Part shown: one piece after another, positions 25,803-29,891 of the stretch
Position numbering within the stretch: the stretch's first letter is position 1
Layout: each line of letters opens with the position of its first letter
Origin: Delftia acidovorans NBRC 14950
Lineage (GTDB): Bacteria; Pseudomonadota; Gammaproteobacteria; Burkholderiales; Burkholderiaceae_C
NCBI RefSeq assembly: GCF_001598795.1
Contig: NZ_BCZP01000020.1
Span: 72,879 to 104,878 of the forward strand
DNA: 32,000 nt
Direction: 5' to 3'
The notes under the pieces: generated by a model
Told to the model about the DNA's origin: nothing
The model's input: the letters and a program-made list of their open reading frames with translations, nothing else
Databases searched by the model: none
Program-made: the position numbers and the translations under genes

Positions 25803-28800
25803 ATGCACGATGCCATCACCAACCCCACGCAAGCTGCGGTGACCCCGGTGGCGCCAGCCCCCCTGGAAATACCCGATTACGAACTGCTGGAAACCTTGGG
25901 ATCGGGTGGCTACGGCACCGTCTACCGCGCGCGCCACCGGCGCACGGGTGCATCGGTGGCCATCAAGGTCGTCAGGCTGCAGGAAGGCGGCCGCCAGGTG
26001 GAGCGCTTCCACCGCGAGACCATGCTGTGCGCGTCCCTGCACCATCCGCACATCGTCCAGTTGCTGGACAAGGGCGAGCAAGGCGACTGTGTCTACGGCG
26101 TCTTCGAGTATGTGCCCGGCGAGACCCTCAAAAGCCTGATCCGCCGCCAGGGCGTGCTGACTGCCGCCGAGGCCGGCCGCCTCATGGCCGAGGTGCTCGA
26201 TGCGCTGGACTGCGCGCATGCCGCCGGTATCGTGCACCGCGACCTCAAGCCCGACAACGTGATGGTCACCTCCACGGGCGCCGTGCGTCACGCCATGGTG
26301 CTGGACTTCGGCATCGGCACCGTCATTCCCCAGTTTGCCGGCCCGCAGGTCTCGCAGCTCACCATGGGCGACGAGTGCCTGGGCACGCCGGCCTACAGCG
26401 CGCCCGAGCAGCTGCGCGGCGAGCCGCCCAGCGCCCGCACCGACCTGTATGCCTGGGGGCTGATGTTCCTCGAATGCCTGACGGGCACGCCCGCCGTGCA
26501 GGGCGCCTCGGTGGCCGAGATCGTGCACCGCCAGCTCAGCCCGCAGGAAGTGCAGCTGCCGCCCGCCATCTCCACCCACCCCATCGCCACCTTGCTGCGC
26601 AAGGCGCTCAAGAAGCGGCCTGCGGAGCGCAGCGACTCGGCGGCGGCCCTGCTCAGGGACCTCATGCGCGTGCGGCTGGACGATCTGGTGGGCCAGTTGC
26701 CCGCCGCCGCCCAGGTGCAGCAGGCGGACCTGACACGCACCGTGGCCACCACACGCGTGTTCTCCGAAGTGCGCCAGCTCACCGTGCTGTGCTGCAGCGT
26801 CTCCCTGTGGCCGGGCAGCGACATCCACGGCATGGACAGCGCGGCACGCACCGCAGGCCAGCCCTCGCAGGGGCTGAACATCGAAGACATCGAACTGCTG
26901 CAGCGCGAGGAACTCACGCTGTTCTCCGACGTTGCCACCCGGCGCGGAGGCATGCTGGCGGGCACGCTGGGCGACCGCATGCTGGTGCTCTTCGGCTACC
27001 CGCACACCAGCGACACCGATGCCCGCCAGGCCGGCATGACGGCGCAGGAGCTGCTGACGCTCAGCCGCAGCCGCGCGGCCGCCATCGAGCAGGTCCACGG
27101 ACTGCACCTCGGAATCCGCATGGGCCTGCACACCGGCATGGCCGTGGTGGTCGGCGGCGAAGCACCCTCGGGCCATGCCGTCAACGTGGCCATGCGGCTG
27201 GAGGCCATCGCCGATGCGGGCACCCTGCTGGCCAGCGAAAGCAGCCATCGCCTGCTGGCCCGCCATGCGCGCTTCGAGAAAGCCGGCAGCCTGCGCCTGC
27301 CCGGCCAGCCCACGGGCATGCAGACCTATCGCCTGGAGCTGGAGCAGCCGGCCGAGCCACTGCCAGGGCCTGTGTCCGATGCGGCCTTGCAGTGCATAGG
27401 CCGCGAACCCGAACTGCAGCGCCTGAACGACGCATGGGCGCGGGCCCGCGAAGCCGGGGGCAATGCGCTGTGGATTCGCGGCGAGCCGGGCATCGGCAAA
27501 TCCTGCCTGGCCGACATGCTGCTCGTCCACGCCAGGACACAGGGCGCGAACACCGTGGTGCTGCAATGCCAGCCCGAGCACCGCAACACCGCGCTGACCC
27601 CTTTCCTGGGCCTGATACGGCAGCGGCTGGAGGCGGCCGATCCCCCGCAGGACCACCGCGAGCAGATGCGCGAAGCCCTGCGCGCCGCAGGCTGCGATGC
27701 CGAGGCCGCCCTGCCCATTCTGTGCGCCTGGCTCTCGCTGCCCCTGGGCGACTGCGAGCCCAGCCGCATCTCGGCCGTCATGCAAAGGGCGCTGCTGCTG
27801 CAGTCCACCGCGCAATGGCTGCTGCACATGTCCGAAGCCGAGCCCTTGCTGCTGGTCGTCGAAGACGTGCACTGGGCCGACCCCACCAGCATCGAACTGC
27901 TGGAGCAACTGGTAGCGCGCCTGCCCGGGCGGCGCGTGCTGCTGGTGCTGACGGCGCGGCCGCAGTGGCAGCCGCCCGAAGGCCTGCAGGCCGAGTGCGT
28001 GGACGTGCGGCGCCTGGAAGACGCGCAGGCCACCGAGCTGGCCCGCCAGACGCTGGCGCCGCGCAGACTCAGCCCCGCCGTGATCCGCCACGTGGTGGAG
28101 CGCACCGACGGCGTGCCGCTGTTCATCCAGGAAATGGCGCGCATGCTGCTGGACGCCCACCTGGTGGAGCAGGACGGCGTCTGGGACTTTCGCCATGCCG
28201 GGCTGCCGGCCGCCATTCCGCTGACCCTGCGCGACTCGCTGGTCAGCCGCTTTGACCGCATCGGCCCTCTCAAGCCGCTGCTGCAACTGGCCGCCACCAT
28301 GGGCCGGCACTTCGACTTCGGCCTGCTGTGCGCCTGCGTGGAACGCCCGCAAGGTGAGGTCGAACAGGAACTGGCGCAACTGGGCCAGGCCGGCCTGGTC
28401 ATTGCCGATGAACGTGCGGGCGCCGGCGCCTTCATGTTCCGCCACGCGCTGATCCGCGACACGGCCTACGAATGCATGCTGGCATCGCAGCGCCGGCTGC
28501 TGCACCGCGACGTGGCCCTGGCCCTGATGCAGCACCAGCCCCAGCGCGTTGCCGCAGAACCCGCAGGCGTGGCCCAGCACTGGGCAGACGCGGGCGACCA
28601 TGCCCAGGCCGTGGCGCTTGCGGTACGGCAGTTGCGCATCACGCAGCTGCGCTCGCTCAACGATGAAACCATTGCCTACGCGCGCCACATCGACGACTGG
28701 CTGCACCAGCTCCAGGGCGTGGCCCAGCGCGAGGCGCGGCTGGACGTCAACAGCTACGTGACCCAGGCGCTGATGAACAAGCACGGCTGGGCCCATGCCC

Positions 28801-29891
28801 AGGTGGTGGAAAGCATCGCGCTGTCGCAGGAGTTGCTGGCCGGCCCCGGCGCCAATGCGGTGGCCGACTACAAGCAGGTGCAGCACCTGTGGATGCTGAT
28901 CACCTACCACCACGTGGCCAGTAACCGCGAGGAAGTGCGCCAGCTCAGCCACCGCCTGCTGGAGCAGGCCGTGCGCCAGCAGGACACGGGCGTACTGGTG
29001 GCCGCGCAGACCTACCTGGGCCTGGCCCACTACTCCGACGGCCGATTCGAGCAGGCCGAAGAAGCGCTGACCGACGCCATCACTCGCTACGACCCCGTGG
29101 CCCATGCCCACCATGCGGCCGAGTTCGGCTTCGACACGCGCGTCTGGGCCACCTGCGGGCGCGCCCTGGTGCGCTGGTTCGCCGGCTTCGACCAGGCCGC
29201 GCTGGCCGATGCGAACGACGCCGTGCGCCTGGCGCACGAGGTCTCGCACATCCCCTCCCTGAGCATGGCCCTGCTCTACCAGGCCCTGGTCCACCAGGCG
29301 CGTGGCGACAAGGAAAGCGCCTTGGCCACCACGGGCGAGCTGCTGGACATCACGGCCCGCTACGGCCTGCCCGCGTTCTCGGGCTATGCGGACATCATCC
29401 GCTGCTGGGCGCTGGGTGACAGCGCAGGCAGCGCCAGCGCCGAGGGCATTGAACGCGCCAGCGGCACGGCGCAGCTGCTCTGGGACATGGGCTGCCGCTA
29501 CTGCCAGACCTACTACCGCTCCTTCGTCGCCGAAATGCTGGCGGCCAGCGGGCGCTGGGCCGAGGCCCTGGACAAGATCGACGAGTGCCTGCGCCTGGCC
29601 GACGTGCTGGACGAGCGGCTGCACAGCAGCGAGCTGCACCTGAAGAAGGCCCGCTTCCTGCTGGCCATGGGCGCCAACCACGCAGCCGTGCAGGACAGCC
29701 TGGCCCAGGCGGCAGGGACTGCGCGCACCGCCGGCAAGTACCGCACCGAAACCGAGGCGCTGGCCCTGTCGCAGGCCCTGGCACCCGCCAGGCCGGACGT
29801 GGCCGCGCGCCTGAGTGAGCTGGCCGCATTGCGGCCTGAACTGTCCGTGCACCTGTCCGGGCCCCTGCCCGGCCAGGTGCATTTTTCTTGA
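25803..29891 (+). CDS. TOMM-system kinase/cyclase fusion protein (Ser/Thr kinase + cyclase-homology domain + AAA_16/STAND NTPase + helical-repeat C-terminus), 1362 aa
   Basis: ATG 25803 lies 5 nt after GAGG. The kinase has LGSGGYGTVY, AIK, HRDLKPDN, DFG and GTPAYSAPE. The cyclase-homology block is QLTVLCCSVS..GTLGDRMLVLFG..GLHTGMAVVG. The P-loop is IRGEPGIGKS with Walker B LLLVVEDVHWAD. The size, the architecture and the neighbours (NHLP-like precursor, leader-binding/cyclodehydratase) match my memory of TIGR03903. Confidence 0.9.
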   Translation: MHDAITNPTQAAVTPVAPAPLEIPDYELLETLGSGGYGTVYRARHRRTGASVAIKVVRLQEGGRQVERFHRETMLCASLHHPHIVQLLDKGEQGDCVYGVFEYVPGETLKSLIRRQGVLTAAEAGRLMAEVLDALDCAHAAGIVHRDLKPDNVMVTSTGAVRHAMVLDFGIGTVIPQFAGPQVSQLTMGDECLGTPAYSAPEQLRGEPPSARTDLYAWGLMFLECLTGTPAVQGASVAEIVHRQLSPQEVQLPPAISTHPIATLLRKALKKRPAERSDSAAALLRDLMRVRLDDLVGQLPAAAQVQQADLTRTVATTRVFSEVRQLTVLCCSVSLWPGSDIHGMDSAARTAGQPSQGLNIEDIELLQREELTLFSDVATRRGGMLAGTLGDRMLVLFGYPHTSDTDARQAGMTAQELLTLSRSRAAAIEQVHGLHLGIRMGLHTGMAVVVGGEAPSGHAVNVAMRLEAIADAGTLLASESSHRLLARHARFEKAGSLRLPGQPTGMQTYRLELEQPAEPLPGPVSDAALQCIGREPELQRLNDAWARAREAGGNALWIRGEPGIGKSCLADMLLVHARTQGANTVVLQCQPEHRNTALTPFLGLIRQRLEAADPPQDHREQMREALRAAGCDAEAALPILCAWLSLPLGDCEPSRISAVMQRALLLQSTAQWLLHMSEAEPLLLVVEDVHWADPTSIELLEQLVARLPGRRVLLVLTARPQWQPPEGLQAECVDVRRLEDAQATELARQTLAPRRLSPAVIRHVVERTDGVPLFIQEMARMLLDAHLVEQDGVWDFRHAGLPAAIPLTLRDSLVSRFDRIGPLKPLLQLAATMGRHFDFGLLCACVERPQGEVEQELAQLGQAGLVIADERAGAGAFMFRHALIRDTAYECMLASQRRLLHRDVALALMQHQPQRVAAEPAGVAQHWADAGDHAQAVALAVRQLRITQLRSLNDETIAYARHIDDWLHQLQGVAQREARLDVNSYVTQALMNKHGWAHAQVVESIALSQELLAGPGANAVADYKQVQHLWMLITYHHVASNREEVRQLSHRLLEQAVRQQDTGVLVAAQTYLGLAHYSDGRFEQAEEALTDAITRYDPVAHAHHAAEFGFDTRVWATCGRALVRWFAGFDQAALADANDAVRLAHEVSHIPSLSMALLYQALVHQARGDKESALATTGELLDITARYGLPAFSGYADIIRCWALGDSAGSASAEGIERASGTAQLLWDMGCRYCQTYYRSFVAEMLAASGRWAEALDKIDECLRLADVLDERLHSSELHLKKARFLLAMGANHAAVQDSLAQAAGTARTAGKYRTETEALALSQALAPARPDVAARLSELAALRPELSVHLSGPLPGQVHFS

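Follow-up and report, generated by a model that had tools for sequence, protein, structure and literature searches.

Gene clusters in which a kinase/cyclase fusion protein is encoded together with NHLP-Burk precursors and a fused YcaO gene were described by Haft, Basu and Mitchell in 2010, with Delftia acidovorans among the named species (PMC2887384). The fusion proteins make up the NCBIfam family TIGR03903, "TOMM system kinase/cyclase fusion protein", and our literature search for functional studies of TIGR03903 or NHLP-Burk returned only bioinformatic papers (2010, 2015). Here we analyze a 32,000-nucleotide stretch of Delftia acidovorans NBRC 14950 (contig NZ_BCZP01000020.1, positions 72,879 to 104,878; G+C 63-72%), hereafter the window, in which a plus-strand gene at 25803..29891 encodes a 1362-aa TOMM system kinase/cyclase fusion protein that we refer to as KC. 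It is near certain that KC represents TIGR03903 in Delftia, this family being the third conserved component of the NHLP-Burk/fused-YcaO "two-chain TOMM" system. As an entity KC is not novel, being already catalogued, annotated and linked in print to the Delftia cluster. The details added by this analysis are the apparent family-wide loss of catalysis in the cyclase-homology domain, the linkage to genes for an FHA protein or a sigma-54 activator and the conservation of a YPF(T/S)C tail in the precursor.

Domain architecture and family membership of KC

KC lies in an open reading frame (ORF; 25695..29891, plus strand) that opens with TTG; translation from the ATG at 25803, which is the start called in six public genomes, gives 1362 aa. 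The protein has a full-length match to TIGR03903, scoring 1279.7 bits against a curated cut-off of 705.75 (model positions 2-1262 of 1267), and reproduces the family layout of Pkinase domain, cyclase-homology domain and long C-terminal region at close to the family size of ~1350 aa. The neighbouring genes by which the family is also recognized, a TIGR03795 precursor and a fused TIGR03882/YcaO gene, lie beside KC, and in architecture and neighbourhood nothing differs between KC and TIGR03903. The exact sequence is present in NCBI and UniRef, where the named members of its 90%-identity cluster (320 members) are called "TOMM system kinase/cyclase fusion protein [Delftia]". The same name is carried by many homologues from Variovorax, Xylophilus, Aquabacterium, Sorangium, Desulfatitalea and Psychromonas, and the family is widespread across Comamonadaceae, Sorangium, Desulfobacterota and Gammaproteobacteria.

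The N-terminal part of KC is a Hanks-type Ser/Thr kinase domain (aa 26-281; 25878..26645, plus strand; Pkinase 7e-48) with a complete motif set of Gly-rich loop, VAIK Lys, alphaC Glu, HRDxKxxN, DFG and APE. The motifs read GSGGYGTVY (aa 33-41), AIK (aa 53-55), HRDLKPDN (aa 145-152), DFG (aa 168-170) and GTPAYSAPE (aa 194-202). Across an alignment of 36 family members, with pairwise identities to the window KC down to 32%, K55, E72, H145-R146-D147, K149, N152, D168-F169-G170, T195, P196 and P201-E202 are all invariant. KC is an RD kinase, and its activation-loop residue Thr187 is also invariant in the 36 sequences. By sequence, PknB is the nearest protein of solved structure (E 3e-43). Thr187 sits eight residues ahead of the GT195P motif, and by this motif spacing Thr187 probably occupies the position of the PknB activation-loop residue Thr171.

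Further downstream lies a STAND NTPase module of AAA_16 type (aa 530-715; 27390..27947, plus strand; AAA_16 2.2e-20, with weak NACHT and nSTAND3 matches). Its Walker A motif GEPGIGKS (aa 560-567; 27480-27503, plus strand) and its Walker B segment LLLVVEDVHWAD (aa 682-693; 27846-27881, plus strand), which contains VVEDVHWAD, are invariant at their key positions in the same 36-sequence alignment: G560, G563, G565 and K566 in Walker A and E687-D688 in Walker B. Because the key kinase and NTPase residues are invariant in the family, both catalytic modules look functional, as far as sequence can tell. The remaining part of the protein, from aa ~760 to aa 1362 (28080..29888, plus strand), is a helical, TPR-like region and the presumed sensor. 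Its Pfam matches are weak: TPR_2 reaches 27.6 bits (cut-off 27) with no individually significant stretch, and TPR_12 falls below its cut-off (aa 1045-1096). Some KC homologues list TPR_MalT (PF17874) among their precomputed Pfam domains, and the STAND/TPR part of KC gave no match when compared with PDB sequences.

The original prediction, made from the letters of the window alone, had described the domains of this gene correctly: every kinase motif that it quoted as intact lies where it was placed, with catalytic residues that are invariant in the family, and a P-loop/Walker B NTPase followed by helical repeats is what we find. The 261-aa precursor that it mentioned is likewise a genuine TIGR03795 protein. 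What it overlooked is that the gene belongs to a named family, TIGR03903, already published for the Delftia cluster.

The cyclase-homology domain

Between kinase and NTPase lies a class III cyclase-homology domain (aa ~321-512; 26763..27338, plus strand), identified by profile comparison with PDB sequences and by an AlphaFold2 (AF2) model. The Pfam Guanylate_cyc match covers only aa 374-512 (1.4e-7; model positions 42-182), and an alignment from a single-sequence search starts only at residue ~350, because an insert of ~16 residues follows strand beta1. A profile built from 25 sequences of the domain covers strand beta1 and matches CyaB (3r5g, E 4.8e-25) and Cya2 (2w01, E 1.1e-20). In this alignment TVLCCSVSLWP of KC stands opposite TVFFSDIRGFT of CyaB and TILTSDLRGFT of Cya2, and therefore Ser332 (codon 26796..26798, plus strand; within the segment LTVLCCSVSLWP, aa 326-337) falls on the first metal-binding Asp, that of FSDIRGFT in CyaB and TSDLRGFT in Cya2. 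Gly387, the first residue of the second-Asp segment GTLGDRMLVLFG (aa 387-398), is opposite the residue that specifies the substrate, Lys in CyaB and Glu in Cya2, and a seven-residue deletion relative to both enzymes takes out the second specificity position. D391 aligns with the second metal-binding Asp, and N461 and R465 with the transition-state Asn and Arg (VNLASR), so that three of the six canonical catalytic residues are retained.

The fold itself is well predicted. The AF2 model of aa 300-530 has a predicted local distance difference test score (pLDDT) of 87.3, the insert being the only weak segment within the domain, and the top PDB matches returned by Foldseek are all class III cyclases (CyaB, Cya2 and CyaC; E ~1e-13, target-normalized TM-score ~0.78). 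The original prediction had placed Ser in the first Asp position, considered the second Asp context kept and concluded that the domain is probably not a nucleotide cyclase. Structure prediction and profile alignment now support this reading, recovering a class III fold with D391 as its only metal-binding Asp; the prediction had not noticed Gly387 or the deletion of the specificity loop.

We then surveyed the cyclase domain across the family by aligning 119 domains from the 120 best KC homologues. At the first Asp position Ser occurs 59 times, His 15, Ala 13 and Gly 11, with others making up the rest and Asp found once; among the 117 kinase-fused homologues in which strand beta1 is aligned, the residue is never Asp or Glu. 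Of the 119 domains, 117 have Gly, Ala or Ser at the Lys position; 76 keep the second Asp, 50 the Asn and 88 the Arg. Structural positions are better preserved, with G390, F397, G398, H443, G445 and G457 near-invariant. The single Asp-bearing domain belongs to a kinase-less protein (P0110) composed of zinc ribbon, cyclase, AAA_16 and TPR parts, which reads LTVMFCDIVDST and LGDG. As P0110 alone among the aligned domains retains both FCDIV and LGDG, the domain probably descends from active cyclase-AAA_16-TPR proteins and would have been kept for another reason after catalysis was lost.

These results suggest that the domain has retained its fold while becoming catalytically degenerate, that it cannot be expected to act as a canonical cyclase, and that the degeneracy is that of a family-wide pseudoenzyme, a point not stated in the sources that we consulted on the family. 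A domain that still works as an enzyme, producing a cyclic or linear nucleotide signal by non-canonical chemistry through D391, N461, R465 and perhaps an acidic residue of the insert at aa 338-353, would agree with the presence of these three residues in KC and with the well-predicted class III fold. We nevertheless regard it as very improbable, given that the first Asp is missing from every kinase-fused homologue with an aligned strand, that the Lys position is almost always a small residue, that Asp and Asn are kept at D391 and N461 in only part of the family, that the specificity residue is deleted and that the insert carrying D340 and D345 is unconserved and has low pLDDT.

One further feature of strand beta1 is a Cys-Cys pair (aa 330-331; nt 26790-26795) in the context TxLCC, the two residues being conserved in 106 and 100 of the 119 domains. 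The pair adjoins the lost metal-binding Asp, where active relatives read Phe-Cys-Asp.

The precursor, its modifying enzymes and the partner genes

The start codon of the precursor gene is 17 nt past the KC stop codon (29909..30694, plus strand; 261 aa). The protein matches TIGR03795 at 167.8 bits (cut-off 41) in two stretches, and represents a tandem fusion of two NHLP-Burk domains. Its C-terminus is AYPFTC. Of 102 precursor homologues, at least 95 have YPF(T/S)C at their end, with 0-3 further residues after it, so that nearly the whole protein may be a protein-sized "leader" and just the final two to five residues the modifiable core. Thus the "core" would consist of a hydroxyl residue and a Cys at the extreme C-terminus. 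Thr/Ser-Cys is a classical YcaO substrate, and it is conceivable that the Thr/Ser of the tail is also a kinase target.

Overlapping both the precursor stop and the YcaO start is an ORF for an S-adenosylmethionine-dependent methyltransferase of the LCM family (30669..31535, plus strand; PF04072 1.5e-11). It occupies the same slot in Variovorax and Aquabacterium and is absent from more distant clusters, being confined to those of Comamonadaceae. Because the leucine-carboxyl-methyltransferase family PF04072 methylates C-terminal carboxylates, the enzyme might, speculatively, esterify the C-terminal Cys of the precursor. The next gene (31492..32000, plus strand; assigned by homology) is the 5' end of a fused leader-binding/YcaO cyclodehydratase gene that continues beyond the window. 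The encoded fragment is 96.5% identical to the N-terminus of a 739-aa product from another Delftia contig (L001:11584-13803), which scores 99.3 bits with TIGR03882 (cut-off 36.9) and 211 bits with TIGR03604 (cut-off 219).

Gene neighbourhoods were sampled by exact-protein look-ups in 11 lineages: Delftia, Variovorax, Aquabacterium, Desulfoluna, Sorangium, Psychromonas and five metagenomic lineages. The order in Delftia is a gene for a low-molecular-weight (LMW) phosphatase-like protein (115 aa), KC, the fused precursor, the LCM methyltransferase, the YcaO fusion (739-743 aa), an FHA protein (314 aa) and a 111-aa ORF. Ten of the 11 lineages have one or two precursor genes of NHLP-Burk type immediately after KC and a YcaO fusion in the vicinity; the KC homologue of the remaining one (L093) has no precursor and no YcaO gene nearby. 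In Desulfoluna the reading frames of KC and precursor overlap, and Psychromonas aquimarina (L090) has two KC paralogues and two YcaO fusions together with NHLP-Burk-type proteins. The sampled clusters all lack genes for an exporter or a leader protease, an absence already noted for these clusters (PMC2887384), and a SagB/ThcOx-type dehydrogenase gene is present in only one of them (L095).

An orthologous FHA protein (~314-326 aa) is encoded beside the KC system in 5 of the 11 lineages. Its gene lies 3' of the YcaO gene in Delftia (L001:13923-14867, just past the right end of the window), Variovorax and Aquabacterium, and directly before KC in L092 and L094, two distant lineages in which KC has 32-33% identity to the Delftia protein. 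The protein family is small (101 clusters) and has the phospho-Thr-binding motifs GR, SxxH and NG; G22, R23, H41 and G60 are found in all of 27 members, S38 and N59 in at least 90% of them. In an AF2 model (pLDDT 89.7) the FHA domain is followed by a middle domain rich in beta structure and then by a C-terminal unit that consists of three strands, three helices and a beta-hairpin and in which the motifs GERIHHY, SQGW, NIQIFRA and VERRRG are conserved. The modelled topology of this unit is like that of OmpR/PhoB winged-helix domains, and DNA binding is offered purely as a hypothesis. In three other lineages, all without the FHA gene, a sigma-54 activator gene lies directly upstream of KC: in Desulfoluna it encodes a GAF-type protein (L088:6225-7724), and in Sorangium (L089:6180-7940) and a metagenomic lineage (L096:234-2042) the N-terminal ~220 aa of the product have no Pfam match.

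Several other searches and observations concern the same neighbourhoods. A scan of genome contigs with the family alignment, in which generic kinase peptides (GIVHRDLKP and LDFG) served as probes, found almost only unrelated Hanks kinases. Scanning 25200-32000 for sigma-70 promoters and terminators gave no promoter-like site and no plus-strand terminator, a result that is compatible with one operon and otherwise uninformative, and a sigma-54 promoter scan of the window (TGGCACG-N4-TTGCW, at least 10 of 12 matches) had no hit. A predicted 1560-aa protein (P0055; L096:2045-6727) was considered as a natural KC-precursor fusion and rejected as a gene-call artefact, its Arg-rich tail overlapping a normal precursor ORF (...AYPFTCCT) that lies in another frame. 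Among the Psychromonas aquimarina proteins, the C-terminus is YPFSSI in an NHLP-Burk protein of 130 aa and MPFTC in one of 407 aa that matches no Pfam family.

Directly upstream of KC in the window, an ORF of 115 aa (25290-25637) encodes an LMW phosphotyrosine-phosphatase/ArsC-like protein with the CX5R(S) motif VCSRNQWRS; a longer version of this ORF partly overlaps the preceding DUF6886 gene (24713-25252). We rejected the LMW-phosphatase-like gene as a conserved part of the system, as no sampled lineage other than Delftia has it next to KC. GFA-family genes (glutathione-dependent formaldehyde-activating/CENP-V-like) are found on both flanks in Delftia, at 24198-24602 of the window (minus strand) and at L001:16866-17276. 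Downstream gene content varies among Delftia strains (L001:15563-16783 compared with L002-L006), one strain having an HNH_2 gene whose product weakly resembles a phosphorothioated-DNA restriction endonuclease, so that the conserved left flank seems to be accompanied by a variable region. Farther upstream in the window, and apparently unrelated to KC, are genes for a sigma-54 activator with a receiver domain and for RpoN sigma-54 (2910-4616 and 7393-9039), a 1290-aa protein with two histidine-kinase/receiver modules (10012-13884) and an ErtE-type N-carbamyl-L-glutamate amidohydrolase (13951-15243; 647 bits, cut-off 520). The window also encodes two TctC receptors, a LysR regulator and a catalase, a set of housekeeping and regulatory genes that fits a chromosome of Comamonadaceae.

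A candidate signalling switch and its relation to known systems

STAND proteins include Ser/Thr kinases such as PknK (PMC4381067). The layout of KC, judged from its domains, appears to be that of a STAND switch, with an effector, a nucleotide-binding oligomerization module and a repeat sensor. We give about an even chance to the reading that KC works in the cytoplasm as a STAND signalling switch of MalT/PknK type, with the dead cyclase as a scaffold. For such a switch we infer the ligand, the oligomerization, the scaffold role and the kinase substrate as follows. The C-terminal TPR-like region would bind an inducer, for which the most plausible candidate is the NHLP-Burk protein or its YPFTC tail as modified by YcaO; the AAA_16 module would then exchange nucleotide and multimerize. 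The cyclase-homology domain, lacking catalysis, would persist as a dimerizing scaffold or linker, a role proposed because canonical class III cyclase domains work as dimers. The scaffold would pair two PknB-like kinase domains, leading to autophosphorylation at Thr187 in the activation loop, and the active kinase would signal to the phospho-Thr reader or regulator encoded next to it, namely the FHA protein in Delftia and the sigma-54 activator in other lineages. The precursor-less homologue of L093 fits a general signalling architecture, and the domain architecture, the dedicated FHA partner and this homologue all point towards signalling.

Several observations weigh on the other side. Pathway regulators are rarely so strictly conserved and collinear with their targets as KC, which precedes the precursor directly in nearly all sampled lineages, overlaps its frame in Desulfoluna and is duplicated along with the YcaO gene in Psychromonas; such collinearity suits an integral enzyme or partner at least equally well. 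The FHA partner is absent from 6 of the 11 lineages. As to its possible DNA binding, the C-terminal domain matched nothing in Pfam at E values up to 10, and hhalign against an approximate PhoB sequence gave E values of 0.18 and 0.25 for two pieces, which align, in the order to be expected, with separate parts of the PhoB domain. A profile of this domain had no match in the PDB and Foldseek with the whole FHA-protein model returned only FHA domains, and it is therefore the predicted topology that carries the winged-helix idea. The proposed ligand and the use of the cyclase domain as a scaffold are wholly conjectural, and the literature that we searched holds no experiment on any member of TIGR03903.

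The same collinearity speaks for KC as a biosynthetic kinase, the idea put forward in the original prediction. KC would then bind the NHLP-Burk precursor through its TPR region and phosphorylate one of its Ser/Thr residues, the Thr/Ser of YPF(T/S)C being the obvious target, in a step that gates or complements YcaO cyclodehydration and methylation. The short gap between the genes in the window, the overlap in Desulfoluna, the paired duplication in Psychromonas alongside NHLP-Burk-type proteins and the near-universal tail of the precursors all agree with this. Kinases do act on precursors of RiPPs (peptides that the ribosome makes and that are modified after translation), as in class III/IV/V lanthipeptides and phosphorylated lasso peptides. 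Against such a role, KC and the Pfam families listed for the 11 clusters include neither a phospho-Ser/Thr lyase nor a LanC-like domain, and KC matches the LanL and LanKC models only through its kinase domain (91.6 against 650 bits and 57.6 against 575 bits). Thr/Ser-Cys is itself what YcaO enzymes classically act on, the combination of STAND NTPase and TPR sensor is an architecture of signalling proteins with no precedent known to us among RiPP tailoring enzymes, and a dedicated FHA reader and a homologue without a precursor exist. We therefore consider a biosynthetic kinase doubtful, while treating it as the leading competitor of the STAND signalling switch. It is distinctly less probable that KC belongs to an NLR-like conflict or defence module, in which the STAND part senses an invader or stress and the kinase and the YcaO-modified protein act as an intracellular effector, with no bacteriocin being exported. 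The STAND-plus-effector architecture, the absence of exporter and leader protease genes and the variable downstream content in Delftia, including the HNH/phosphorothioated-DNA restriction gene of one strain, are compatible with defence. PADLOC-DB 2.0, however, matched KC only in the generic kinase domain (aa 23-330; PD-T4-6 and mad6) and left the STAND part, the precursor, the methyltransferase, YcaO and the FHA proteins unmatched, and the upstream flank is conserved housekeeping DNA across the sampled Delftia strains.

A broader possibility, which we regard as rather unlikely, is that the NHLP-Burk system as a whole forms an intracellular protein-modification and signalling circuit and does not make an exported peptide. 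The NLR-like STAND kinase would directly recognize the folded NHLP-Burk protein and then either phosphorylate the Thr/Ser of its YPF(T/S)C tail to gate YcaO cyclodehydration or read the modified tail and signal through the FHA regulator, with the former cyclase serving as a pseudoenzyme for dimerization or nucleotide sensing. If so, KC would be, to our knowledge, the first STAND switch integral to a YcaO/RiPP-type pathway. The family was named fifteen years ago, and the YcaO systems to which it belongs, whose "leader" is as large as a protein and whose core has only 2-5 residues, always carry a kinase-STAND protein of 1350 aa. The family-wide pseudo-cyclase, the strictly conserved kinase and NTPase and the co-travelling FHA protein or sigma-54 activator make this small, long-standing puzzle more testable, not novel.

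Among characterized proteins, PknK of M. tuberculosis has been described as a STAND kinase (PMC4381067). By shared domains it compares with KC in its N-terminal PknB-like kinase effector, its AAA_16-type oligomerization module and its helical repeats. PknK is not known to contain a cyclase-homology domain between these kinase and NTPase parts or to be tied to a YcaO/precursor operon. The cyclase-AAA_16-TPR proteins, represented by Rv0386 of M. tuberculosis and by P0110, share with KC the signatures ERRQxT...FGYP...DDA and the same NTPase-TPR module, P0110 being ~30% identical to KC over the STAND part. Rv0386 is an active class IIIc adenylyl cyclase. Proteins of this type retain FCD(I/L)VxST and LGDG, with both metal-binding Asp residues, whereas the KC family has LCCSxS, a Gly at the specificity residue and an additional N-terminal kinase.

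The combination of KC and FHA protein resembles the actinobacterial pairs PknH-EmbR and PknB-GarA, in each of which a Hanks kinase with an activation-loop phospho-Thr has a canonical FHA partner; the FHA domains of EmbR and GarA are also among the Foldseek structural matches of the FHA-protein model. The non-FHA domains of KC's partner are unrelated in sequence to those of EmbR and GarA, and it is gene adjacency that suggests the pairing with KC. Finally, LanKC and LanL are like KC in having a Hanks-like kinase domain and in being encoded beside a ribosomal precursor, but where these synthetases carry lyase and LanC-like cyclase domains, KC has no such Pfam domain and contains a STAND NTPase instead.

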